Shown: positions 27,440 to 56,504, counted from the stretch's first letter. The stretch: 64,000 bases of DNA from an uncultured Acidobacteriota bacterium (GCA_937870635.1 CALMZP010000083.1:5100-69099); one strand, 5' to 3'. A program made the numbers and translations. Notes: a model not told the origin generated them from the letters alone.

Positions 27440-28240
27440 AGGCAGCTTTGGCATCTGTCCAAAGGTCGAGCGCCAGCAAGTCACTTGCCGTCCACACGTA
27501 CTCCGTCAGACCGGCCACCATCGCCGGAGTCTTGCCACCGAGTGATTTGTGCTTGCGGCAGAAGTTGTAGAAAACCACGTTGAGCGCGAGCATGTGTCGG
27601 TGATTCTCGAACTTCTTCGAGAATCCATTTGTGAGGCGCGTGAAACGCCGATTCTGCATACGAAGGGTCAGGTTCCAACGCTCCATGTATGCGGTCGAGA
27701 TGTTCTTGTCGCGGCTGCCGGTATTCGTGCTCGATGATGGAACCCGCGTTCTGAGAGATCCCGCGTCGTTGATGCAACTTGGTTTCCATGGGGAAGAATC
27801 GGTACTCCGTCGATCGGATGGTCGCGGGTCCGAACCCCGTGCTGACGTGGCGGACTCCGATGAACGCGATAAGTCATCAGCACGACGAAGAGTCGGTAAG
27901 AACTCGATCCGACGCGCAGAACGCACGCGAAGCCGTCACGCGTGGTCCGCATTTCAGCTTGCGCCGCGTTCTTGTTTGGCACCACGGTCGCCACCGGCAT
28001 CGCGACGGGTGGCCTCTTGATTGGCCTGGGTCTGGCCGCCGCGACCATCGTCGGCGCCGTTGCTGGAACCGGCACCATTGCCGCCATGACGGTGCGGCAT
28101 GACGTTAAGTCGCTACGCTGCCTCCCTCTCGGCCCACATGTCCAGCGCGAGCATGTTACTCGCGGTCCAGACGTAATCAGTCAGACCAGTGACCATCGCC
28201 GGAAGTCTTGCCTGCGAGTGACTTGTAGTTACCCGTCACT
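27438..28240 (-). pseudogene. decayed IS transposase remnants (IS1/IS1595-like DDE transposase 3' end, two copies, frameshifted)
   Basis: 27438-27700 encodes ...ERWNLTLRMQNRRFTRLTNGFSKKFENHRHMLALNVVFYNFCRKHKSLGGKTPAMVAGLTEYVWTASDLL*. A second, 1-nt-frameshifted copy of the same C-terminus (KSLAGKT..PAMVTGLTDYVWTASNMLALDMW) lies at 28118-28232. Upstream portions are broken into three frames. Confidence 0.6.
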
Positions 28241-28268
28241 CGTCACTCCCAAGGTCAGGTTCCAGAGG

Positions 28269-31452: not shown

Positions 31453-31620
31453 GGTGCTTGGTGCTTGGTGCTTGGTGCTGCGATGCGGGTCAGCCACGTC
31501 ATCCCGAGGCGCGAAGACGCCGAAGGACCCCCAGGATGCGAAGATCGCGTCGATCGAGGCCCTTCTCTGTCTACGCGGCTCAGGGTGACGTGATCACCAA
31601 GCACCAAGCACAAAGCACCG
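31453..31620. repeat. composite palindrome: GGTGCTT x4 arms flanking a cacgtcatcc...gaaggacc core
   Basis: Left arm 31453-31481, right arm 31594-31620 (inverted). The core is related to the 56569-56668 palindrome. Confidence 0.7.
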
Positions 31621-31655
31621 AGACTCAGCACCTGCGCTACACTCCCGGTGGTCTC

Positions 31656-33743
31656 ATGCTGGTACCGGAAGAACAGGGGCAGGGGGCGGTTGGCGCCGGG
31701 ATGCGCACGAAGTTCATCGTGGCCTTCGCGGTGCAAACGATCTTCATCGCGGTCGCCATCGTTGTCCTTCAGCAGTGGCTCGTCAGGCGCGCGATGCAGC
31801 GGCAGACGGTCGACCAGGGGCGGGCCATCGCCAACACGGTCGACTCCACCGCTTCGTACTACGTTCTTTTCGGTCTCACCGACGATCTGAAGAACATCAC
31901 CACGGAACTGAAACGGAACACATCGATCGAGTATGCCGACTTCATCGGCGCCGACCGCTCGATCTTCGCCGCGACGCATCCCGAGGTTCCCGAGAGCGTG
32001 AAGACCGCGCCGGTCCGGAGGACCGACGGCCTGCCCGTCGGTGGCGGCCTTCATTACTTCATCGTCCCTTTCTACGAATCGCGTGCTGATGCCGCGAATC
32101 CGGCGACGCTGCCGCGCGGCTACTTCAGGCTTCTCACCAATGACAGCCACGCGACCGCGGCGATCGCCGATCTGCAGAAGTGGACGATCGGCACGGTGGT
32201 TGGCGCACTGGCGCTTTCCATCGCCCTGGCCTACTTCGCCGCGACGTTTTTCATCCGCCCCATTCTCAGCCTGGCCGGAACCGCGCAGCAGATCGCCCAG
32301 GGCGATCTGACGCAGCGCGCGGCCGTGCCTTCGACCGACGAAGTCGGAATTCTGGCCGAGGCGTTCAACTCGATGTCGGCGAATCTCGAACGGACCGTGC
32401 GGAGCGTCCTTCAGTCGCAGGCTAAGCTGAAATCGGTCGTCGAGACGGTCGACAGCCGTTCGCGCACGATGATCGATCGTGTCGACGAGCAGCGTTCCAT
32501 CATCGACGAGACGTCTCACTCGATCGACCGCCTCAACAGCGGTGTCCGCAAGATCACGGACAACGTCGAGGCGCTTTCTGCATCTTCGGAGGAGACATCG
32601 TCCTCGATGCTGGAGATGGTTGCTTCGATGGAAGAAGTCAGCCGGCATACGGACACGCTCTGGAGCTCCGTCGAGGAGACGGCCTCCGCCACTCACGAAA
32701 TGGTGTCGAGCATCAACGAGGTCGATCAGAACGTGGTCTACCTCCGCAACTTCGTCACCGAGACCTCGTCGTCGATGGTCGAGATGAGCGCGTCGATCGC
32801 CGAGGTGGAGTCGAACGCGGCGACGTCGTACGATCTGGCGCTCGCCGTTGCCGACGCGGCCGAATCGGGAATGAAGGCCGTTCGCGAGACCATCGAAGGG
32901 ATGGAGCAGATCCGCCGCTCCGTCGCTGAATCCAACGCGGTCGTCTCCCGCCTCGGCGACCGCTCCCTCGCCATCGGCAGGATCCTCAACGTCATAGAAG
33001 ACATCGCCGAGCAGACGAACCTGCTGGCACTGAACGCGGCGATCCTCGCTGCCCAGGCCGGCGAGTACGGCAAAGGGTTCTCGGTGGTGGCCGCGGAGAT
33101 TCGCGAGCTCTCCGAACGGACCGCGTCATCGACGCGCGACATCGGCGCGCTGATCAAGTCCGTGCAGGAAGAAGTCGGCAACGCGTCGAAGACGATGACC
33201 TCCGGATCGGGCCTCGTCGAAGAAGGCGTGAAGCTCTCCCACGAGGCGGGCCGCGCCCTCACACGCATCCTCGACTCCGCATCCAAAGCTTCGGGCATGG
33301 GCAAGGAGATCGCCAACGCGACGCGCGAGCAGGCCGTCGGAAGCGAGACCGTGACCCGCTCGGTCGAGCGGCTGCAGGAAATGGTGCGGCAGATCAGCGC
33401 CGCCACGGCGCAGCAGGCCGCCGGCTCGGACCATATCCTCAAGGCCGTCGAATCGATGCGCGAGGTGACGAAGTACGTGCGCCAGGCGATGGTCGAGCAG
33501 AAATCGGGTTCGACGATGATCTCGACAGCGACCGAGCGGATGATCGAGATGATCCACGAGATCTTCCAGGTCGCCGCCAATCAGGCCGGTGAGAGCGAGA
33601 AGATCGTCTCGATCATGGAGCAGGTGAAGATGATCGCCGAGGGGAATCGGACTTCGGCAGGCGACATGAGCGAGGCCATCTCGCTGCTCAACGAGGCCAT
33701 TCGCAGCCTCGACGACGAAGTGCGCAAGTTCCGGGTGCACTGA
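31656..33743 (+). CDS. methyl-accepting chemotaxis protein (TM-HAMP-MCP signal domain)
   Basis: HAMP (IAQGDLTQRAAVPSTDEVGILAEAFNSM) and the highly conserved MCP hairpin (EQTNLLALNAAILAAQAGEYGKGFSVVAAEIRELSERT). Confidence 0.85.
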   Translation: MLVPEEQGQGAVGAGMRTKFIVAFAVQTIFIAVAIVVLQQWLVRRAMQRQTVDQGRAIANTVDSTASYYVLFGLTDDLKNITTELKRNTSIEYADFIGADRSIFAATHPEVPESVKTAPVRRTDGLPVGGGLHYFIVPFYESRADAANPATLPRGYFRLLTNDSHATAAIADLQKWTIGTVVGALALSIALAYFAATFFIRPILSLAGTAQQIAQGDLTQRAAVPSTDEVGILAEAFNSMSANLERTVRSVLQSQAKLKSVVETVDSRSRTMIDRVDEQRSIIDETSHSIDRLNSGVRKITDNVEALSASSEETSSSMLEMVASMEEVSRHTDTLWSSVEETASATHEMVSSINEVDQNVVYLRNFVTETSSSMVEMSASIAEVESNAATSYDLALAVADAAESGMKAVRETIEGMEQIRRSVAESNAVVSRLGDRSLAIGRILNVIEDIAEQTNLLALNAAILAAQAGEYGKGFSVVAAEIRELSERTASSTRDIGALIKSVQEEVGNASKTMTSGSGLVEEGVKLSHEAGRALTRILDSASKASGMGKEIANATREQAVGSETVTRSVERLQEMVRQISAATAQQAAGSDHILKAVESMREVTKYVRQAMVEQKSGSTMISTATERMIEMIHEIFQVAANQAGESEKIVSIMEQVKMIAEGNRTSAGDMSEAISLLNEAIRSLDDEVRKFRVH

Positions 33744-34225
33744 TGGCCGACGGAGCGAACGGGCTTCGCCTCATCACGTTCAGGGTCGGGCCGGAGACCT
33801 TCGTCGTGGACATCATGGCCGTCCGCCAGATCATTCCTTACAGTGGATCGACCTCCGTCCCCACTGCACCGTCGTTCGTGGAGGGAGTGATCATCGTGAG
33901 GAACGACGTCATCCCCGTCGTCGACCTCCGCCGTCGTCTCTATCCGGATCTCGGCACAACCGACCGGGAGCCGCTTGTGCTCATCACGCATTCGACCGCC
34001 GGCACGATCGGCCTGAAGGTCGATGCGGTGCGGCGCATCATCAACGTCTCTCGCGACAAGCTGCTGCCGCCGCCGCCGCTGATCCGCGGTATCCGCGGAG
34101 AGCTGCTCATCGCGCTCATTCCGCACGGCGAAGAGGTCTACCTGCTCATCGATCTCGAAAGCGTGCTGACGGGCGACGAGCGCAGGGAGCTGGCCGATGC
34201 GCGGCTGCAGGGGAAGGCGGACTAG
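33743..34225 (+). CDS. cheW: chemotaxis coupling protein CheW
   Basis: CheW fold (FRVGPETFVVDIMAVRQII...VIPVVDLRRRL...GLKVDAV). The ATG overlaps the MCP stop (TGATG). Confidence 0.9.
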   Translation: MADGANGLRLITFRVGPETFVVDIMAVRQIIPYSGSTSVPTAPSFVEGVIIVRNDVIPVVDLRRRLYPDLGTTDREPLVLITHSTAGTIGLKVDAVRRIINVSRDKLLPPPPLIRGIRGELLIALIPHGEEVYLLIDLESVLTGDERRELADARLQGKAD

Positions 34226-34233
34226 GCCGTTTG

Positions 34234-34316
34234 GATCCTGGACCCTGGACCTTGGAATTGAGAGTCGAATGAGTACTCACGTCATCCTCGGCCGCGAAGA
34301 CGGTCGAAGGACCTCC
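34234..34316. repeat. GGACCTTG-like units plus a half copy of the cacgtcatcc...gaaggacc core
   Basis: gatcctggaccctggaccttgg, then cacgtcatcctcggccgcgaagacggtcgaaggacctcc. Confidence 0.45.
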
Positions 34317-34384
34317 GGTTCCGCTCTGGATTGTTTCACAGCCTCTCAGTGTGGCGCCGGCGCCCTCGCCGGCGCCCGAGAAGC

Positions 34385-35254
34385 TCACTCGCGAATGGCC
34401 TGAACGATCCACCCGTCGCCGGTCAGGTTGTCAACAGTGGCGCCGTAGGCACTCCACATGCCGGGCGTTCCCTGCGGAATCACGCTGGCCAGGAGTGGTC
34501 CCCAATTTCCAGCGGGAACGCCCACCTGGGCCATCGAGCAGCTCGGAACATCGAATGTCGCCGTTCCCGGCCCCTGCGTTGTGAGACCGTAGATTTCAGC
34601 TACAAATCTCTGCGGCACGCCTGAGCTGTCGAGGTTCACGACCCCGACATTCGTTCGATATTGCGCGTCGTGGCGGAGACCGATGATGTAGGTGCGAACC
34701 GCGCCGGAGAGGTCGCTCGCCGATACACCGGGGAAAGGCATGGAAACGGATCCGGAGGCGTTCGGCTGCAGCGTCCAGATTCGGGAAACAGCATCGATCC
34801 GAGCGTTCGGATCGACGGCGCCGGCGGCCGTAACTCCGACGATGAGCAGCGCTCCAAGCCCGCTGGCATTCAGCGTCTTGCCGACGAAGTCATCGTAATA
34901 CCGCCAACCCGAACCGAGGTCGATGATCCTCGTCGGATTATTGCAGTTGTTCGCGCCGCTCGGCATCCAGGCGACTTCGACTCGTTGAGACGTCCGGTAA
35001 TTGATCAGCGAAAGGTCCGTTCGGAAGTGTGTCCCGCCCGCGCCGGGCGTGTTGCCGGCCGCCGGAATCAGGACGGCCCCGGCGGGACGATTCGTCGAAA
35101 CGACCGCCGCTCGGAACGAGGCGTCGAAATCGCGGAGCTCGTCGACGAGTTCTCCGACGGTTCTGCCACTGTGAGCGAATTGCGCCTCCGATGGGAACGC
35201 CCAGCCGGCGATGAAGACGAAAACAACGTAGAGCGATGCGCGTTTTGAGGTCAT
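34385..35254 (-). CDS. secreted hypothetical protein (no recognisable domain)
   Basis: Signal peptide MTSKRASLYVVFVFIAGWAFPSEAQ. Gly/Thr/Asn-rich mature part. Divergent from the ECF sigma operon. Confidence 0.5.
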   Translation of the reverse strand: MTSKRASLYVVFVFIAGWAFPSEAQFAHSGRTVGELVDELRDFDASFRAAVVSTNRPAGAVLIPAAGNTPGAGGTHFRTDLSLINYRTSQRVEVAWMPSGANNCNNPTRIIDLGSGWRYYDDFVGKTLNASGLGALLIVGVTAAGAVDPNARIDAVSRIWTLQPNASGSVSMPFPGVSASDLSGAVRTYIIGLRHDAQYRTNVGVVNLDSSGVPQRFVAEIYGLTTQGPGTATFDVPSCSMAQVGVPAGNWGPLLASVIPQGTPGMWSAYGATVDNLTGDGWIVQAIRE

Positions 35255-35387
35255 TCCTGTTCTCCTCGCTGCGAATTTGGGCAGCTATCAACAACTCCCA
35301 TGCAGCGAATACGTGCGGCATGGCATTTCGGAATAACTTGACGTCATCGCTTCATGAGCATACTTTTTCGGAAACCACAATCAATCA

Positions 35388-35885
35388 ATGTTGTTCCGTG
35401 CCGCCGCCTCGCACGTATCCGCCATGGGAGACTTTGAAGATCTCTACGAACAGCACGTGAATGCCGTCTTCCGGTTCAGCCTGAGCTGCGTCGGTCGCCG
35501 GGACGTCGCCGAAGACATCACCAGCGAAGCCTTTCTCGCTCTTTATCGAAAGCTGGACGAGATCGATCGGAATCAATTGCCGGCATGGCTGCTCACGGTG
35601 GCGAAGAATCGGGCCCGCGACTACTGGCGGCATCGCCAGGTGGAGGAGCGGCACACCCAGCAGCCGGCGACGACGCAGGAGCCTTCCATCACATCTCTGG
35701 AGAAGCTGTTGGCCGATGCGACTGTGCTCAAACCGGTTCACCGGCTTTGCCTCAAGCTTCGCTATGTCTACGGCATGTCGCTGTCCGAGATTACAGTGCA
35801 GACGGGCTTGTCCGAAACACAGGTGAAGGGTCACCTCCAGTACGGACGCCGGCTGCTGCGAGAGCAGTATCGGAAGGTGTCGTGA
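35388..35885 (+). CDS. ECF-type RNA polymerase sigma factor
   Basis: Sigma-70 region 2 (DLYEQHVNAVFRF...EDITSEAFLALYRK...AWLLTVAKNRARDYWR) and region 4 (MSLSEITVQTGLSETQVKGHLQYGRRLLRE). The alternative start is ATG 35424. Confidence 0.85.
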   Translation: MLFRAAASHVSAMGDFEDLYEQHVNAVFRFSLSCVGRRDVAEDITSEAFLALYRKLDEIDRNQLPAWLLTVAKNRARDYWRHRQVEERHTQQPATTQEPSITSLEKLLADATVLKPVHRLCLKLRYVYGMSLSEITVQTGLSETQVKGHLQYGRRLLREQYRKVS

Positions 35886-36649
35886 TGGTGAACCGCGCAC
35901 CGGTCTTCGATCCTGACGAGCAGCAATTCATGGAGGAGTTCGGCTTGAGGCCGCGTGAGGGCAGTTGTCCTCCGCTCGACCAGCTGCTCGCTGCGAACGC
36001 CGGCGCGATGTCCGGCGCTCATCTCGAGACCTGCGCCTCGTGCGCTGCGCTGGTCCGCGATTTCACGTCGAGCGAAGCGGCTGATCTGCAACCGCCGGAG
36101 AAGGAGCGAATTCGCACTCGCGTCCGCGACCGCATCAGGACCGACCGCCGCCGCGCCCTCGCCATACCGCTCGCCATCGCCGCGGCCGTGGCGATCGTCG
36201 TCATCGGTCTCTCGCTCTGGTCGCCGCCTCGCCCCGCGGATGCCCCGCCCCGATCGACACCCGTCGCGGCAACGGCCGGCGAGGGCGCCGTCGCCACACG
36301 GAGAACGCCGCCGTCCGTGCCCGCTCGAGCGCTCGAGCCCGCGCCGGTGCGATTGCCGGCGGCGATGCTCACCTGGCGCAACGATGCCGATCGCCAGTTC
36401 GCCGGCGACTTCGGCCCCGCCATCGCGCTCTACCGCGACGCAAAATACGCCGAGGCGGCGGAGCAATTCGAGCAGGTCTCCAGACGCCATCCCTCCTCCG
36501 CTGAGGCCTTCTTCTACCTTGGCGTCTCACAACTGTTCCTGCGACGTCACGCCGATGCGATCGCAAACCTGCAGCGCGCGAGACAGCTCGATCGCGGTGC
36601 ACTGTCGGATCTCATCGACCGGTATCTCGCATTTGCGCACCAAAGGTGA
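35885..36649 (+). CDS. anti-sigma factor (ZAS-like HxxxCxxC, single TM, periplasmic TPR-like domain)
   Basis: The start overlaps the sigma stop (TGATG). Motif HLETCASCAAL, TM segment ALAIPLAIAAAVAIVVIGLSLW, C-terminal TPR-like helices. Confidence 0.65.
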   Translation: MVNRAPVFDPDEQQFMEEFGLRPREGSCPPLDQLLAANAGAMSGAHLETCASCAALVRDFTSSEAADLQPPEKERIRTRVRDRIRTDRRRALAIPLAIAAAVAIVVIGLSLWSPPRPADAPPRSTPVAATAGEGAVATRRTPPSVPARALEPAPVRLPAAMLTWRNDADRQFAGDFGPAIALYRDAKYAEAAEQFEQVSRRHPSSAEAFFYLGVSQLFLRRHADAIANLQRARQLDRGALSDLIDRYLAFAHQR

Positions 36650-36655
36650 AACCCC

Positions 36656-39043
36656 ATGTCGATACCCCTGATCCTCGCGGCCGTTCTGATCAGTGGCAGT
36701 GAACCCGATTGTCTGATGGCTGCGCGCGCTCAGTACAAGGAAGCAACGGCGGCATTCAAGGCCAGTGATACGGATCGCGCGCGGAAGCTCTATCGCGAGG
36801 CGATCATGGCCTTCACAGAGTTGGAAGCATGGCCCGACTTGCTCAGGTCGTATCACGCCTATCTGTTCGTCGTACCTCATTCCGAGGAACACGACACGTT
36901 CACACGAGGCCTCGATCTCGCCCGCCGCCTGGGCAGTGAGCTTTTCGAAGGCCAGATCCTCCACGCGCACGCTGACAAAGTCTTCGGTCGCGGTGACTAT
37001 GCGCAATCAGCCGAGATCCTCGAAACGGCGATCGTTCTGCTCGAACGATCCGATGGCTCGATGTACCTCGCAGACGCTCTCACGAGTCTGGGACGTCTCC
37101 ACCGCGCTCACGGCCGGCCGGACCTTGCGTTGCCGATCTACGACCGAGCGTTGCGCATCCAGGAAGGGCTCGGCGCAGACCTGGCTGCGATCCAGACGAT
37201 CAACGCCATCGGCATCGCGTATCTGCATCTGGACCAACCGGAAAAGGCGCTCGAACAGTCCGAGCTCGGCTTGCGTAAAGCGCTTGAAACGAACTCCGCA
37301 CGCCACATCAACTTCATGCGCGGATCCGTAGCCGCCGCTCACATTTCGCTCCAGCAATACGAGAAGGCCATTCCGCTGCTGCAGCAGGTTCTCGCGGAAC
37401 CGATCACTCCGTATCTCGCCGCGTACCGCAACTTGAGTCTCGCGCAGGCGTACCTCGGTCTGGGCAGGTACACCGAAGCGATCGACGCGGCGGACAAAGC
37501 CATCGAGCTGTCAAAGGCTGCCGGAGTTGGAGTGGAACCGAAGCTCCCAGCGCTGTTTGCCCGCGCGAGGGCGAAGGCGAGGCTCGGGCGCCAGGCCGAG
37601 GCCATGGCCGACGTCGAGGAGAGTCTCCTCTCCATCGAGAACATACAGGCCAGGCTCGTCCCCGAGGATTTCATGAAGCGAGGATTCATCGATACGTATC
37701 AGACGGTCTTCGGACTCGCGATCGAGCTGCAGAGCGATCGCGGTGCGCATGCCGAGGCATTGCAGACGGCCGAGCAGGCGCGGGCGCGATCGTTTCTCGA
37801 CCTCCTGGCGACGCGCCAGATCGACCCTTCCCCTCTGGTCATGCGGAGCAGTTCCTCGCAGCCGGTGCTGCCGAGCTTCGTGTCCGCCGAGGCTCTGTCC
37901 GGCGAGGAGATCGCCGTCACCGCGCGCGATCTGCGATCCACATTGCTCATCTACTGGGTCAATGAAGACAAGACCTTCATCTGGGTCGTCGACCCCGATG
38001 GAACCATCCACGGCCGAACCGTGCGCATACGTGCGCAGCGTCTCGCCAGTCTGGTGCGACAGAGCTGGGAACAGACCGCTTCCACGCCGACACGCGGGCT
38101 TCTTCTCCGCGGCGGAGAGACGATGACGATCGCGAGGATGGAGCGAACGGCGTGGGCCGAGCTCTATCGCCATCTGATCCTGCCGGTGCGGGACCTCCTT
38201 CCGTCGCAGCGCGGAAGCCTGCTGACCGTCATTCCACATGGGCCATTGTTTCGCCTCTCCTTCGCCGGTCTTCTGGATGAGAAGGACCGCTACCTGGTCG
38301 AGTCGTACGCGATTCACTCCGCGCCGGCGGTCTCGGTTCTGCGATTCATCGCCTCGCGAACGGACGATCGGGACGCGGATGGATACCTGCTTCTCTCGAA
38401 TCCTCGCTTCGGCGCGCCGCCCGACACGAAGGCGCTACCGGCGCTCCCCGGATCAGAGCGCGAAGTGAAATCGATCGCACGACTCCTTAGCAACGAAACA
38501 CGGACGATCCTCAACGGCGGCAACGCCTCGGAGAAAGAGCTTCGAAAGTCGATCGAGGGAAAAGCGGTCCTTCATTTCGCCACACATGGGATCGTGCGGG
38601 ACGATCAGACGCTCGATTCCTTTCTGGCGCTTGCCGCCGGCGACGGTGACAAGAGCAATGACGGCCGCCTCACCGCTGAAGAGATCTACACGCTGAACCT
38701 CGACGCTGATCTCGTCGTCCTCAGCGCCTGCCGGAGCGCGCTCGGAAAAGTATCGGGTGACGGCGTAGCCGGCTTCACCCGGGCGTTCTTCTACGCCGGA
38801 GCGGCGTCGGTGGTGGCAACGCTGGGGGACGTGGCCGACGAGCCGACGTCCTCGCTGCTGCGCGACTTCTATCAGGCGCTGCGCAACGGTTGGTCAAAGA
38901 GCCGCGCCCTTCGCAGCGCGCAACTGGCCATGCTGCGGCGCCTGCGCGCGGGCGAGGTGACCGTCCAGACCATGGCCGGCCCGGCCACACTTCCCGAACA
39001 CCCGATTTTCTGGGCGAGTTTTGTCCTGCAGGGGAGGCCTTGA
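36656..39043 (+). CDS. TPR-repeat plus CHAT-domain (caspase-like) protein
   Basis: N-terminal about 450 aa of TPR repeats. The C-terminal CHAT domain has a His (HFATHGI) and Cys (LVVLSACRSALG) dyad. RBS aaggtga before the ATG. Confidence 0.85.
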   Translation: MSIPLILAAVLISGSEPDCLMAARAQYKEATAAFKASDTDRARKLYREAIMAFTELEAWPDLLRSYHAYLFVVPHSEEHDTFTRGLDLARRLGSELFEGQILHAHADKVFGRGDYAQSAEILETAIVLLERSDGSMYLADALTSLGRLHRAHGRPDLALPIYDRALRIQEGLGADLAAIQTINAIGIAYLHLDQPEKALEQSELGLRKALETNSARHINFMRGSVAAAHISLQQYEKAIPLLQQVLAEPITPYLAAYRNLSLAQAYLGLGRYTEAIDAADKAIELSKAAGVGVEPKLPALFARARAKARLGRQAEAMADVEESLLSIENIQARLVPEDFMKRGFIDTYQTVFGLAIELQSDRGAHAEALQTAEQARARSFLDLLATRQIDPSPLVMRSSSSQPVLPSFVSAEALSGEEIAVTARDLRSTLLIYWVNEDKTFIWVVDPDGTIHGRTVRIRAQRLASLVRQSWEQTASTPTRGLLLRGGETMTIARMERTAWAELYRHLILPVRDLLPSQRGSLLTVIPHGPLFRLSFAGLLDEKDRYLVESYAIHSAPAVSVLRFIASRTDDRDADGYLLLSNPRFGAPPDTKALPALPGSEREVKSIARLLSNETRTILNGGNASEKELRKSIEGKAVLHFATHGIVRDDQTLDSFLALAAGDGDKSNDGRLTAEEIYTLNLDADLVVLSACRSALGKVSGDGVAGFTRAFFYAGAASVVATLGDVADEPTSSLLRDFYQALRNGWSKSRALRSAQLAMLRRLRAGEVTVQTMAGPATLPEHPIFWASFVLQGRP

Positions 39044-39044
39044 G

Positions 39045-39191
39045 GATTCACCACAGAGGCACAGAGGACACAGAGTTCGTTCCGAAAGGCCATGCGTTTT
39101 ACGAAGGGATCCGTCACTCGTCACTCGTCACTCGTCACTCGTCACTCGTCACTCGTCACTCGTCACCCAAAGGTCCAAGGTCCGAGGTCAC
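39045..39191. repeat. mixed tandem repeats: CACAGAGG x3, CGTCACT x7, then (C)AAGGTCC units
   Basis: Visible in sequence immediately after the CHAT gene stop. The CGTCACT-AAGGTC combination also occurs at 28226-28250. Confidence 0.6.
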
Positions 39192-39231
39192 GGGGTCCAG
39201 CCGAGAGGTGAAAGCCGGTTAAGATGCGCCC

Positions 39232-40245
39232 GTGTTCTCGCGCGACCGCCTTCTCCAGCTCACTGAAGCCATGCAGGGGAAGCTCGTGGTCGTCTACGGC
39301 GACATCGTGGCGGACCGCTTCATCTACGGAACACCGAAGCGGATCTCTCGCGAAGCGCCGGTGCTCATCCTCCGTCAGTATCGCGACGACGTGCTTCTGG
39401 GCGGTGCGGGCAACGCGATGAACAACATCCTCGCGCTCGGCGGACTCCCGATCCCGGTCTCCGTGGTCGGCGCCGACGCGGAAGGCGATGCGCTGATCGA
39501 GCGCCTGACCGCGCAAGGCATCGACTGCAGCGGCGTCCTGCGGGTCGAGCGCTACAAAACTCCCACGAAAGTGCGCATCCTCGGCGGCATGCCTCACGCG
39601 GCGCGGCAGCAGATCGTGCGCTATGACATCGAGGATTCACTCACGATCACCGAACAGGAAGCCGATCGCTTCGCGTGGCTGCTGCGCGATCAGATCTCGA
39701 TCTGTCACGCGGGACTCATCAGCGACTACGGTTATGGGGTCGTCACGCCGTCGCTCGCCTCGAACCTCACCGGATACTCGAGGGGAAAACCGGTGACGCT
39801 CGATTCGCGGTATGACCTGTTGCGGTATCCCGATGTCACCGCCGCCACGCCAAACGAAGAGGAGGCGGCGGCCGCGGCTGGAATGTCCCTCGCGGAGGAT
39901 GACGGCGGCGAGAATGCGGAGTTCGTGGGACAGACGCTGCAGCAGAGCCTCGATTGCGAAGCGATTCTGATCACGCGCGGAAGCCGCGGGTCAATGCTGC
40001 TCGAGCGCGGCGGGAGGCCGGTGTTCCTTCCCGTTCACGGCACCGACCAGGTGGCGGATGTCACCGGCGCCGGGGACACGGTCATTGCCTCGTTTACGCT
40101 CGCACTCGCCGCCGGTGGCTCGTACCTCGAGGCCGCGAAGCTGGCCAATTACGCCGGCGGCATCGTGGTCATGAAGATGGGAACGGCCACCGCATCGAAC
40201 GAAGAGCTTCGCCACGCGATCGAGCGCGACGAGGGGCTGGAGTAA
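39232..40245 (+). CDS. hldA: D-glycero-beta-D-manno-heptose-7-phosphate kinase (RfaE domain I / HldA-like, PfkB family)
   Basis: PfkB ribokinase-like signature (GGAGNAMNN; DVTGAGDTVIASFTLALAAG). GTG start. Confidence 0.85.
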   Translation: MFSRDRLLQLTEAMQGKLVVVYGDIVADRFIYGTPKRISREAPVLILRQYRDDVLLGGAGNAMNNILALGGLPIPVSVVGADAEGDALIERLTAQGIDCSGVLRVERYKTPTKVRILGGMPHAARQQIVRYDIEDSLTITEQEADRFAWLLRDQISICHAGLISDYGYGVVTPSLASNLTGYSRGKPVTLDSRYDLLRYPDVTAATPNEEEAAAAAGMSLAEDDGGENAEFVGQTLQQSLDCEAILITRGSRGSMLLERGGRPVFLPVHGTDQVADVTGAGDTVIASFTLALAAGGSYLEAAKLANYAGGIVVMKMGTATASNEELRHAIERDEGLE

Positions 40246-53710: not shown

Positions 53711-54873
53711 CGCCGAAACGACTCTATCTGACCGTGTTTTTTGCGCTTGGCTGGCTGCTGGCCATCGGCGTCGCATTTCAGTTCGGCCTTGCCAGTGCAG
53801 TCGGGGCTGCCTACCGGAAAGCGGCTTCGAGGCTCGACTGGATCAGCCAGAAGGCATCCGACGCCGAAGGGGCCGCTCTCACGAGCGTCCGTCAGAACGC
53901 GCGGCGGGATTATCTCGAGCCGCTGAAACCGACTCTCACGTCGGTGGCCGCGCTGAAGAACCCCCCGAAGATGCTGTTCGGCGCGTACGACGGCGGGTTT
54001 CCTCACGACACCTCCGGATTCGCGAAGCTCGAGAGCGATGTCCGCTATCGGTTTCCCATCATCTCCTTCTACTCCGCCTGGGGCGATCAACCGGACCAGC
54101 AGTTTCCCGTGAGGATGGTCGAGACAATCGACCGGCTCGGCTCGGTGCCGATGATCACGTGGGAGCCGTGGGTGACGGACTTCGACCCCCGCCTTCGCCC
54201 GAATCTGCCATCGAAGTCGGATCGCGAGTACGCCAGTCTCGCCGCGATCGGGAAGGGTGAGTACGACTTCTACATCTCACCGTGGGCCGAAGCGGCGGCG
54301 CGGTTCGGCAAGCCGATCTTCCTGCGCTTCGCTCACGAGATGAACGATCCTTATCGCTATCCGTGGGGACCGCAGAACGGGAACCGCCCCGACGACTTCA
54401 TCGCCGCGTGGCGCCGCGTTCACGACATTTTCCAGAAGAGAGGCGCCACCAACGTCATCTGGGTTTGGTCGCCTCACATCTCGATGCCATGGTTCGAGTA
54501 CTACTATCCCGGCGACCACGTCGTCGACTGGGTCGGTATGGGCATTCTCAATTACGGAACGGTGGCGTCCTGGTCTCGGTGGTGGAGCCTTCACCAGATC
54601 CTGGACAAGGCGTATCCGACGCTCGCCAAGTTCAACAAACCAATGATGATCGCGGAAATGGGCACGCTGGCCCAGGGTGGAGACGTCCTCGTCTGGTATC
54701 AGCAGGCGTTCTACCAGCTCGAGCACACGTACGGCCGCGTCCGCTCGATCATCTTCTTCAACCAGGCCAACGATGTCACAATGTCCACTTATCCGTTGAA
54801 CTGGACGGTCGGCCAGGATCCCCGCGCTGCAGAATTCATCGCGAAAGAACTGGCCAGGCTGTCAGCTCAGTGA
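53707..54873 (+). CDS. glycoside hydrolase, GH26-like (clan GH-A)
   Basis: FLRFAHEMN (acid/base region) and MMIAEMG (nucleophile region). TTG start overlaps the GT2 stop. Confidence 0.55.
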   Translation: MTPKRLYLTVFFALGWLLAIGVAFQFGLASAVGAAYRKAASRLDWISQKASDAEGAALTSVRQNARRDYLEPLKPTLTSVAALKNPPKMLFGAYDGGFPHDTSGFAKLESDVRYRFPIISFYSAWGDQPDQQFPVRMVETIDRLGSVPMITWEPWVTDFDPRLRPNLPSKSDREYASLAAIGKGEYDFYISPWAEAAARFGKPIFLRFAHEMNDPYRYPWGPQNGNRPDDFIAAWRRVHDIFQKRGATNVIWVWSPHISMPWFEYYYPGDHVVDWVGMGILNYGTVASWSRWWSLHQILDKAYPTLAKFNKPMMIAEMGTLAQGGDVLVWYQQAFYQLEHTYGRVRSIIFFNQANDVTMSTYPLNWTVGQDPRAAEFIAKELARLSAQ

Positions 54874-54887
54874 AAGGTCCCGGTCCC

Positions 54888-56504
54888 ATGTCCCGTCGGC
54901 TCGTAGCCATAGCTCTCTTCGCAGCAATTCTTCCCCTCACCGCGGCAGCTCAGACCGCGTACATATCGGGCGTGGTTCGCAACACTGCTGGTGCTGCGCT
55001 CGGAGATGTGACTGTGCAGGCTTACAGTCCTGCGGGCTTCGCGGTCAACACTGCGACAACAACGCCGCAAGGCGACTACACGCTGGTGGTCCCGAGCGGG
55101 TCTTATCGCGTGCTCGCCTACGATAACAGCGGTACGTGGGCCGTCAGCTATTACGGCAACGCTCTGTCTTACGAAGCATCTGAGGCGATCAACGTCACCG
55201 ATGGTCAGCGAATCACGGTGAATTTCGTTCTGAGTCCCGGTCGGAGCATCTCCGGGTTCGTCGGGAACGCCGCAACGGGTGCTCCTCTGGCCGGCGCGGT
55301 CGTCGCCGCCTATAACCTCGATGGATCGCGTCGCACGTTCGTCCGTACGAACAACGACGGGTCCTTCAACCTCACGGTTCCCGCTGGTTCGTACAAGATC
55401 GCCGCATACCACGAGGTCGCGCCCTACATTCCGACGTTCTTCCGGAATGAGCGTCTTTTCGGTCTCGCGGACACGGTGACGCCGCCCGCCAACAACATCA
55501 ATTTCGGCCTCGGGCCGGGCACGAAGCTCCTCGGATCGGTGAAGGAAAAAGTCACGGGGCTTGCACTTCCGTCCATGCAGGTGGTTGCCTACGACCTTCA
55601 AGGGAACGTGCAGTTCCGCACGGAGACGAATCCGGCGGGGAACTTCGCGTTCGTCCTTCCTCCGGGATCATTCAAATTTGCGGTCGAGGATCGCGGTGGT
55701 AACTATCAGACGACGTTCTTCCGCGACTCGACGTCGTTCGCATCCGCGGCCAGCGTCGTCGCCGATGCGTCGGCTCCGCTGCTGAATTTCACGGTTGCGC
55801 GCGTGCCGGATGCGACCCCGCTCACGACGTTGTTCATCCCCGGGATCATCCACGCAGAGAACAGCGCCGCGGGAACCTTCTTCAAGACCGACGTCTGGAT
55901 CCAGAACCCCGGCGACGCACCGCTGACGGTCACGGCCGTTTACCTTCCAGGCGGTCAGGACAATTCCGCCGCGACCGGCCTGCCGGTCATCGTTCCAGCC
56001 CGTGGTCAGCTGGCTCTCACCGATATCGTGCCGAGCTTGTTCGGCACGACCGGCGCGGGTGCCCTCCGTCTAGAAGCCGAAAGAGCGTTCCGCGCGACGA
56101 GCCGCACTTACAACGTCCCCTCGAACTCGGCACAGATCGGTACCTTCGGCCTCTCGATTCCGGGGCAGTCGCTCGGTGCATCGCTCGGCCGGGCAACGCT
56201 GGCCGGTCTCGCGTACAACTCCGCCAGCCGGACCAATATCGGACTCATGAACCCTCAGCCGATATCGCTTGACATCAAAGTGGAGGTTTTCTCGTCCACT
56301 GGCGCGCTCCTCGGATCGCGGACCTTCACGCTGAAGCCCGGTCAGTGGGATCAGCCCAACGTCACCGCCGTGGTTGGTGAAGGCGCGAACTTCAATCAGG
56401 CCTACGCGGTCATCAGCTCATCGCAGGGATCGTTCTTCTCGTACGCCGCCGTGGTCGACTCGAAGAGCGGCGACGGAACGTTCATCCTGCCGAGCGGAGA
56501 CTGA
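54888..56504 (+). CDS. secreted protein with repeated carboxypeptidase-regulatory-like (CarbopepD_reg) domains
   Basis: Signal peptide, then at least 4 repeats of the G.V....G.PL.GA.V.A...G motif. Confidence 0.6.
   Translation: MSRRLVAIALFAAILPLTAAAQTAYISGVVRNTAGAALGDVTVQAYSPAGFAVNTATTTPQGDYTLVVPSGSYRVLAYDNSGTWAVSYYGNALSYEASEAINVTDGQRITVNFVLSPGRSISGFVGNAATGAPLAGAVVAAYNLDGSRRTFVRTNNDGSFNLTVPAGSYKIAAYHEVAPYIPTFFRNERLFGLADTVTPPANNINFGLGPGTKLLGSVKEKVTGLALPSMQVVAYDLQGNVQFRTETNPAGNFAFVLPPGSFKFAVEDRGGNYQTTFFRDSTSFASAASVVADASAPLLNFTVARVPDATPLTTLFIPGIIHAENSAAGTFFKTDVWIQNPGDAPLTVTAVYLPGGQDNSAATGLPVIVPARGQLALTDIVPSLFGTTGAGALRLEAERAFRATSRTYNVPSNSAQIGTFGLSIPGQSLGASLGRATLAGLAYNSASRTNIGLMNPQPISLDIKVEVFSSTGALLGSRTFTLKPGQWDQPNVTAVVGEGANFNQAYAVISSSQGSFFSYAAVVDSKSGDGTFILPSGD

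Follow-up and report, generated by a model that had tools for sequence, protein, structure and literature searches.

In Escherichia coli, the sigma factor of the RpoE-RseA-RseB system is released by the successive action of DegS, a PDZ serine protease encoded elsewhere, and RseP, and the system is autoregulated (summarised in PMC10028731 and PMC11506125); RseA is not a zinc anti-sigma factor, and RseB is not a protease. The DdvS/DdvA system of Myxococcus xanthus combines a sigma factor of the extracytoplasmic function (ECF) type with an anti-sigma factor that carries a zinc-binding anti-sigma (ZAS) domain, a transmembrane helix and a periplasmic tetratricopeptide repeat (TPR)-CHAT portion in one chain (PMC11506125, PMC6061681). 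DdvA has been proposed to cleave its own linker before RseP acts, and fused proteins of the DdvA kind were seen by the authors of that study in Myxococcota and one Comamonas only (PMC11506125); the promoters used by DdvS read GTAAn16CGT (PMC6061681). A TPR-CHAT protease is also at work in type III-E Craspase, where it cleaves Csx30, which inhibits an ECF-like sigma factor (PMC10028731). Here we describe a 64,000-nucleotide (nt) stretch of DNA from an uncultured Acidobacteriota bacterium (GCA_937870635.1, CALMZP010000083.1:5100-69099; hereafter the window, in which positions are counted from the first letter). Its + strand carries three tightly packed genes: one for an ECF sigma factor, one for a zinc-type transmembrane anti-sigma factor whose periplasmic TPR domain is small, and one for a TPR-CHAT protein. 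We suggest, by analogy and giving the idea an even chance, that this cassette is a DdvS/DdvA-type signalling unit in which the anti-sigma factor and the periplasmic TPR-CHAT protease have been split, and that the CHAT protein cuts the anti-sigma factor in trans.

The three-gene cassette is a real unit, and its arrangement lies far beyond chance: of 75 evaluable loci, each from a different species, about 70 hold the same triad. These come from a scan that took one genome per species and returned 80 loci, whose six-frame open reading frames (ORFs) were searched with hidden Markov models of the sigma factor, the anti-sigma factor and the CHAT protein; weak sigma-like ORFs were confirmed with Pfam, and the tally of gene orders was corrected by hand. 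Almost all of the loci belong to Acidobacteriota metagenome-assembled genomes (MAGs), namely Terriglobia, Bryobacterales, Vicinamibacteria and Solibacter-type. The order sigma, anti-sigma, CHAT was found in about 61 loci, the order CHAT, sigma, anti-sigma in five, and a convergent order in four; one locus (L025) holds a degenerate copy, four (L030, L032, L051 and L070) hold an orphan CHAT gene with no sigma or anti-sigma gene within 5 kb, and five more, cut by a contig end, were not evaluable. The genes that flank the triad differ and are unrelated between loci. In the reverse test, three anti-sigma homologues picked independently were each found with a sigma gene on one side and a TPR-CHAT gene on the other. 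Metagenomes contain homologues of the CHAT protein with 36-66% identity, and of five contexts inspected, four show a sigma gene, a gene for a TPR protein of ~300 amino acids (aa) and a CHAT gene with unrelated flanks, and the fifth a sigma/anti-sigma pair convergent to the CHAT gene.

In the window, the stop codon of the sigma gene overlaps the start codon of the anti-sigma gene (TGATG), and the CHAT gene begins 6 nt past the anti-sigma stop, with AGGTGA preceding its start. An initial annotation of this DNA, made from the sequence alone, had named the same three genes (an ECF sigma factor, a ZAS-like single-pass anti-sigma factor with periplasmic TPR helices, and a TPR-CHAT protein with an intact dyad) and had proposed a single operon. 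Pfam, NCBIfam and our own reading of the sequence agree with the former, and the overlap and short gap make the latter likely, although the gap before the CHAT gene had been given as 7 bp rather than the 6 nt counted here. It had also staked its case on conservation of the module as a unit and of the CHAT dyad, and both have held.

As a separate observation, triads of the acidobacterial type also occur in MAGs labelled Acidimicrobiia (L034 and L064), Betaproteobacteria (L057), Polyangia (L062) and Bifidobacteriaceae (L082); these labels may be binning or labelling errors, or may point to rare horizontal transfer.

In the third protein, residues 501-793 match the CHAT domain (PF12770) at E=6.9e-70, scoring 236 bits where the cut-off is 24. 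The AlphaFold2 (AF2) model, with a predicted local distance difference test (pLDDT) score of 84.5, contains a hydrophobic N-terminus (residues 1-15), about 19 TPR helices (18-382), a disordered loop (383-411) and a CHAT fold (416-795). The dyad residues H644 and C692 are invariant in 18/18 and in 80/80 orthologues, an acidic residue at position 702 is likewise kept in 80/80, and the protein is predicted to be a competent cysteine protease with an intact dyad. When PDB entries were ranked by E-value in Foldseek, DdvA came first (8rw5, 1e-16; 8rot, 1e-15), followed by Craspase Csx29 and separase; the global template-modelling (TM) score between DdvA and our model is only about 0.3, with 14-15% identity in the structural alignment. 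The family profile also matches the DdvA CHAT domain by sequence (E=2e-9). Classical signal peptides stand at the N-terminus of 8/10 orthologues inspected, and the protein of the window and that of its closest relative have in this place a hydrophobic segment without charges, MSIPLILAAVLISGS. The CHAT family therefore appears to be exported to the periplasm; for the window copy, the case is weaker, its periplasmic location being suggested because its orthologues carry signal peptides. Export, which the initial annotation had raised as a possibility, is thus plausible.

A further feature of this protein is an almost invariant motif, ARARxFLDLLA[TS]R, at the end of the TPR array (window 37784-37816, CHAT residues 377-387), which the variable disordered loop (383-411) separates from the CHAT domain. 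Its L-x-x-R end is loosely like the L-[VT]-W-R of the anti-sigma factor described below and might be an autoprocessing site, which is pure speculation.

The anti-sigma factor belongs to a large family, with at least 546 clusters at 50% identity that reach E<=1e-30; its conservation was assessed on 69 locus-derived sequences and 150 representatives, the best of an exhaustive profile search. Like class I ZAS proteins, the window copy has an H-x3-C-x2-C motif with an upstream fourth ligand, and in the 150 representatives these ligands are kept in 144 (C28), 149 (H46), 147 (C50) and 147 (C53). Family members match the Pfam domain zf-HC2 (PF13490; for instance P0247, 28.8 against a cut-off of 22.2); the window copy itself gave no PF13490 match at E<=0.01 and a sub-threshold match to the NCBIfam 'antisigma' model (1.7e-4). 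With the N-terminal family profile, the best PDB matches, both marginal, were the N-terminal domain of DdvA (8rlz_A, E=0.006) and ChrR (E=0.007), followed by RslA and RsiW. An Arg-rich segment precedes the transmembrane helix, which indicates a topology with the N-terminus inside and the C-terminus in the periplasm; AF2 predicts a long helix at residues 70-110. The C-terminal part matches Pfam TPR_16 (E=2e-8), and the external TPR portion comprises about 2.5 repeats. Between the transmembrane helix and the TPR domain, the family shares the consensus L-E-K-P-P-V-K-L-P-A-A-x-L-[VT]-W-R-G, in which the arginine (R165 in the window) is present in 69/69 locus-derived sequences and 148/150 independent representatives, and the residue after it is Gly in 55/69 and 121/150.

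Two variants of the anti-sigma factor deserve mention in their own right. Four of the 150 best representatives (P0244, P0247, P0268 and P0289, of 483-504 aa) carry, instead of CHAT, an extra CarboxypepD_reg-like C-terminal periplasmic extension of ~200 residues; a CarboxypepD_reg-like beta-sandwich was seen in P0244 and P0247, the two scanned, and in the sole context retrieved (P0244, locus L091), a TPR-CHAT gene still follows. In another subset, mostly from MAGs labelled Vicinamibacteria (L018, L031, L034, L046, L052-L054, L056-L058, L071, L079 and L086), HxxxCxxC is lost (for example H-L-x-x-S-A-W-S-R). Since these proteins still have the transmembrane helix, R-G motif and TPR domain, and their genes the CHAT neighbour, the module cannot depend on the sensing of zinc or redox state.

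The sigma ORF at 35388-35885 matches Pfam Sigma70_r2 (E=1.5e-14) and Sigma70_r4 (E=5e-7) and NCBIfam TIGR02937 (sigma70-ECF, 69 bits against a cut-off of 42.9); no specific NCBIfam subfamily scored above its cut-off, and the PDB profile matches are the ECF factors SigE, SigL, SigW and CnrH. With its region 2 and region 4 domains and a length of 153-165 aa, the protein belongs to the ECF (group IV) sigma-70 factors. The gene callers and the initial annotation start it at ATG 35388, which gives 165 aa. The start is, however, most likely ATG 35424, because a conserved promoter occupies 35390-35420: ATG 35388 lies just upstream of the -35 element of this promoter, and the sigma factor of the closest orthologue is called at 153 aa.

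This promoter conforms to a bipartite motif, (T)TxTTCC(G)-N16/17-CGTAT(T/A)C, found directly upstream of the sigma genes. With a position weight matrix (PWM) seeded from 18 of these loci, 40/65 orthologous loci reach a score of >=12, where the background rate is 1.4e-5 per position, and in 35/40 motif-bearing loci the -10 element and the sigma start codon after it are 3-7 nt apart, most often 6. The window copy scores 19.5, the second-best site of the 64 kb, and its -10 element ends 6 nt before ATG 35424. As the promoter ends a few nucleotides before the start codon, the sequence implies a leaderless and autoregulated sigma mRNA. Two further traits that the cassette shares with ECF factors, both computational findings, are a coupled anti-sigma gene (the TGATG overlap) and a predicted promoter for autoregulation whose -10 element is of the CGT type (the motif in 40/65 loci). 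A consensus scan of 34200-39400 found no sigma-70-like promoter, and terminator-like matches in the same region were only at the level of shuffled sequence. The features of the locus are listed in Table 1.

Table 1. Coordinates of the cassette, its predicted promoters and the adjoining secreted-protein gene in the window.
Feature	Position	Strand	Basis or remark
289-aa secreted protein, signal peptide MTSKRASLYVVFVFIAGWAFPSEAQ	34385..35254	-	at least 95 homologues
Divergent copy of the predicted promoter: -35 TTCC 35333-35330, 16-nt spacer, -10 CGTA 35313-35310	35307..35337	-	
Predicted autoregulatory promoter: -35 TTCC 35394-35397, 16-nt spacer, -10 CGTA 35414-35417	35390..35420	+	
ECF sigma factor, 153 aa from MGDFEDLY	35424..35885	+	Pfam, NCBIfam, PDB profile matches, promoter geometry
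Single-pass anti-sigma factor, 254 aa: predicted cytoplasmic CHCC zinc-type domain, transmembrane helix, Pro-rich linker, periplasmic TPR	35885..36649	+	
Zinc-ligand motif C28 ... H46-x3-C50-x2-C53 (CHCC)	35966..36043	+	codons verified
Transmembrane helix LAIPLAIAAAVAIVVIGLSLWS, with Arg-rich stretch KERIRTRVRDRIRTDRRRA directly before it	36158..36223	+	sequence reading
Conserved periplasmic motif LEPAPVRLPAAMLTWR165-N, just N-terminal to the TPR domain; possible site of recognition or cleavage by CHAT	36332..36382	+	
Predicted periplasmic TPR domain of the anti-sigma factor (helices 167-253)	36383..36646	+	AF2 pLDDT >92
TPR-CHAT caspase-like protein, 795 aa	36656..39043	+	Pfam CHAT and several TPR families
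Catalytic dyad H644 (codon 38585-38587, LHFATHG) and C692 (codon 38729-38731, LSACRS)	38585..38731	+	

The best PWM site of the window on either strand (score 23.8) is a divergent copy of the promoter, directed at the secreted-protein gene, so that the two top sites of the 64 kb form a divergent pair in the 170-bp intergenic region. Only one other site exceeds a score of 15 (55715-55745, + strand, 15.2, with CGCA for CGTA); it lies inside a 740-aa ORF (54282-56504), is probably there by chance, and was set aside. Many orthologous loci likewise have an additional promoter with the same motif, which in some is divergent from the sigma gene and in others directly follows the CHAT gene. The genes that such promoters precede encode mostly signal-peptide proteins of unrelated families (Ig-like ASH/Cep192, NHL/SBBP/FG-GAP propellers, PKD, Peptidase_C25 and C1, esterase), and several have no known domain. 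Because, in other species, neighbouring genes for different secreted or surface proteins are predicted to be driven by this promoter, the computational evidence points to a conserved switch with an output that varies across lineages.

The 289-aa secreted protein of the window fits this pattern. The initial annotation had treated it as an orphan paired with the module, yet at least 95 homologues share 38-60% identity with it, and it is absent from the module loci of other species: considered as a fourth member, it was rejected, as phmmer found it, among module loci, in same-species contigs only. Two of its homologues sit in unrelated contexts without the module and without the promoter motif. 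Pfam, NCBIfam and PADLOC gave no match to it. Because a strong sigma-type promoter copy precedes its gene, the protein is probably a lineage-specific member of the regulon and not part of the conserved module.

Some smaller features of these promoter regions may be recorded here. On the - strand at window 35251-35301, a 16-codon ORF, MGVVDSCPNSQRGEQE, has its start 8 nt beyond the -10 element of the divergent promoter, and its TGA overlaps the ATG of the 289-aa protein gene (ATGA). Around the start of this ORF, the sequence CATGGGAG repeats the sigma start region 35423-35430 as an inverted duplicate. The ORF may be leaderless and, as an upstream ORF, coupled to the 289-aa gene, or it may be a by-product of promoter duplication. 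In the closest relative (locus L006), there are three more copies of the promoter motif, at positions 156 (-), 5656 (-) and 5757 (+), each with an ATG exactly 8 nt after CGTA, one of which opens a 170-aa signal-peptide protein (MKIILVAFLLL...). This geometry suggests that target genes beyond the sigma gene can be leaderless in this lineage.

The proposed mechanism would work as follows. At rest, the cytoplasmic CHCC zinc domain of the anti-sigma factor would keep the sigma factor at the membrane, as homology to ZAS domains suggests, and the anti-sigma factor would show its small TPR domain, preceded by the near-invariant L-[VT]-W-R-G motif, to the periplasm. A periplasmic signal, probably a protein, would be sensed through the long TPR array of the CHAT protein, which would then serve as a dedicated site-1 protease and cut the juxtamembrane region of the anti-sigma factor in trans, with Arg-Gly as the best candidate site. 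An RseP-type site-2 protease and cytoplasmic proteases would then release the sigma factor. Once free, the sigma factor would transcribe its own leaderless operon from 35390-35420, a positive feedback that would raise the levels of the anti-sigma factor and the CHAT protein, and also the divergent secreted-protein gene from 35307-35337. The main basis for suggesting cleavage in trans is that DdvS/DdvA fuses the same parts; in addition, the TPR-CHAT protease of Craspase cuts an inhibitor of an ECF-like sigma factor. As the anti-sigma factor and the CHAT protein are encoded by two separate genes, any such cleavage must be intermolecular. The CHAT protein, presented in the initial annotation as a sigma-controlled effector, is more likely to be part of the signal input, acting on the anti-sigma factor in the periplasm.

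Several observations weigh against this mechanism. The steps of the proteolytic cascade are all drawn from homology or analogy, and CHAT-mediated cleavage of the linker has been proposed but is still unproven even for DdvA (PMC11506125). Among the 150 best representatives of the anti-sigma family, which are stand-alone proteins of 250-504 aa, there is no fusion to CHAT, and the argument from fusion therefore rests on the distantly related DdvA; a word-indexed search for anti-sigma fusions returned 27 matches, of which none was fused to CHAT. Because the global TM-score is low, the likeness of the CHAT protein to DdvA is one of domains. The candidate site is also ambiguous: R165 lies two residues before the first TPR helix (AF2 pLDDT about 76-80), and on the model its role might be to cap the structure and not to serve as a scissile or recognition site; in the window copy it is followed by Asn instead of Gly. 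The promoter PWM, being seeded from some of the same loci on which it was scored, is partly circular. The N-terminus of the window CHAT protein lacks the basic n-region of a typical signal peptide.

Other differences set the window copy apart from its family and count on the same side. Its anti-sigma factor has a 7-residue deletion between C28 and H46, lacks the last ~40 residues of the family, among them a Cys pair that 148/150 representatives have, and carries R where the family has W246 (147/150). Its CHAT protein lacks roughly 100-180 N-terminal TPR residues and carries W724G, a change common to three other orthologues. The window copy is thus a reduced variant, with an activity that might be impaired or unlike that of a typical member. 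It is nevertheless a real circulating variant, since identical proteins occur on 26-33 contigs from different samples.

A different explanation, which we find doubtful, is that the CHAT protease is the main regulated product of the operon. In that case the sigma/anti-sigma pair would use its zinc domain to sense something else, such as stress to the envelope or of the redox kind, and the protease, once exported, would process or degrade other periplasmic or extracellular proteins, be they co-regulated cargo or foreign proteins; the defence or cell-death role suggested in the initial annotation belongs here. The CHAT gene does lie within the autoregulated operon, and its level would rise on induction; the predicted local members of the regulon are secreted proteins, possible substrates; and a ZAS-type zinc motif could in principle sense oxidants, as has been discussed for DdvA (PMC11506125). 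However, the secreted cargo is wholly different between species, yet the periplasmic domain of the anti-sigma factor and the CHAT protein co-occur almost invariably. The periplasmic TPR domain and R-G motif found across the anti-sigma family imply a periplasmic partner, the Vicinamibacteria-type subset without zinc ligands keeps the triad, and in the closest structural relative CHAT forms part of the anti-sigma factor itself. A role in defence finds no echo in the surroundings either: PADLOC returned no matches for any of the four proteins (the triad and the divergent secreted protein), there are no Cas or CBASS (cyclic oligonucleotide-based antiphage signalling system) genes in the window neighbourhood or in the related loci examined, and the window flanks consist of housekeeping genes (a chemotaxis pair of a methyl-accepting chemotaxis protein (MCP) and CheW, and a pfkB-family sugar kinase).

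It is also conceivable, and in our judgement unlikely, that the CHAT protein does not cleave the anti-sigma factor at all and is an RseB-like co-anti-sigma factor or ligand sensor, which shields the TPR domain or the R-G motif of the anti-sigma factor from another site-1 protease, with its own protease activity aimed elsewhere or used for autoprocessing only. Its position as the third gene parallels rpoE-rseA-rseB, and TPR arrays on both proteins suggest protein-protein binding. In M. xanthus, moreover, the bulky TPR-CHAT part of DdvA sterically blocks RseP, and dyad mutants behave like the wild type in unstimulated cells (PMC11506125). On the other hand, neither the dyad nor the motifs around it vary in any of the 80/80 orthologues, which is hard to explain if catalysis is irrelevant, and no other protease gene accompanies the module in the neighbourhoods examined. 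Finally, that an ordinary ECF sigma/anti-sigma pair merely happens to lie beside one of many acidobacterial TPR-CHAT genes is extremely improbable: both kinds of gene are abundant, with hundreds of CHAT homologues listed, and four orthologous CHAT genes stand without the pair, but the recurrence of the triad in about 70/75 loci, in three gene orders and with different flanks, also when approached reciprocally from the anti-sigma factor, together with the start/stop overlap and the 6-nt gap in the window, effectively refutes it.

The cassette thus resembles each of the three described systems and departs from all of them. With DdvS/DdvA (PDB structures 8ROT, 8RW5 and 8RLZ were used for the comparison), it shares an ECF sigma factor translationally coupled to a single-pass anti-sigma factor with a cytoplasmic CHCC zinc domain, TPR and CHAT portions with an intact His/Cys dyad on what would be the periplasmic side (for the window CHAT protein, the location suggested by its orthologues), autoregulation from an ECF-type promoter with a CGT -10 element, and a proposed site-1 role of CHAT ahead of RseP. 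Unlike DdvA, which is a single polypeptide, the anti-sigma factor (254 aa) and the TPR-CHAT protein (795 aa, with an export-like segment of its own) are separated here by a stop codon and the 6-nt gap. The -35 element is TTCC (TTCC-N16/17-CGTAT) as opposed to GTAA in DdvS promoters; DdvS controls an adjacent CBASS/CRISPR-Cas island, whereas the predicted targets here are variable secreted proteins; and the range is acidobacterial rather than myxococcal, with low sequence similarity. The window cassette is therefore outside the DdvA family as defined, being not one chain, having no defence island and using another -35 element. Craspase (Cas7-11-Csx29) likewise links a TPR-CHAT protease to an inhibitor of an ECF-type sigma factor, and Csx29 is the second-best structural match. 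Yet Craspase is cytoplasmic, RNA-guided and bound to Cas7-11, and Csx30 is not a ZAS transmembrane anti-sigma factor, whereas the CHAT family of the window carries signal peptides; neither Cas7-11/gRAMP nor Csx30/Csx31 appears in the gene tables of the window and the related loci examined. The RpoE-RseA-RseB operon has the same order of sigma factor, single-pass anti-sigma factor and periplasmic partner, with a similar site-1/site-2 release (proposed here) and autoregulation. In the present cassette, however, the periplasmic partner is predicted to be a caspase-fold cysteine protease encoded in the operon itself.

The initial annotation had regarded this combination as an undescribed system. 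That view has to be narrowed, as DdvS/DdvA and Craspase are known (PMC11506125, PMC6061681, PMC10028731), and it stands for the split two-protein form, for which we found no paper describing an acidobacterial anti-sigma/TPR-CHAT pair; the main text of the ECF classification 2.0 does not mention CHAT, and the group descriptions in its supplements might still list a CHAT neighbour. As far as our searches reached, what is new is the split two-protein architecture and the large acidobacterial family, and the biology is not categorically new.

The use of CHAT proteases as first-cut proteases for anti-sigma factors is open even in DdvA, the only characterised case, where the signal is not known and self-cleavage was not observed. 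The natural split described here separates the enzyme from its substrate and offers a candidate motif, R165-G, along with hundreds of sequence variants; because the enzyme and the candidate substrate are separate proteins, cleavage can be tested directly in vitro. It carries the connection between CHAT and ECF sigma factors beyond a narrow group of myxobacteria into a major phylum of the soil, supplies a predicted promoter code for one family of acidobacterial ECF sigma factors, and suggests control of variable sets of secreted proteins rather than of immunity genes. If correct, this would be the first two-protein CHAT/anti-sigma signalling pathway and a tractable model for the unproven DdvA mechanism. 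In its broadest form, the proposal would be that Acidobacteriota widely employ a trans-acting periplasmic caspase-like site-1 protease that cuts at a conserved juxtamembrane Arg-Gly, as a portable switch wired, by way of a leaderless autoregulated promoter, to lineage-specific secreted or surface proteins; this we put forward tentatively, as possible rather than probable.

Upstream of the module, beyond the secreted-protein gene, lies the chemotaxis pair (window 31458-34225, + strand), which comprises a gene for an MCP with HAMP and MCPsignal domains and then a CheW gene whose ATG overlaps the MCP stop codon; this pair is not kept beside the module in other species. On the other side, about 70 nt past the CHAT stop codon, there is a perfect array of the heptamer CGTCACT (7.9 copies, window 39112-39166), flanked by two shorter arrays at 39052-39075 (CACAGAGGA, 2.8 copies) and 39170-39189 (AAGGTCC, 2.9 copies). 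A two-unit match to the CGTCACT heptamer occurs once elsewhere in the window, at 28234-28247.

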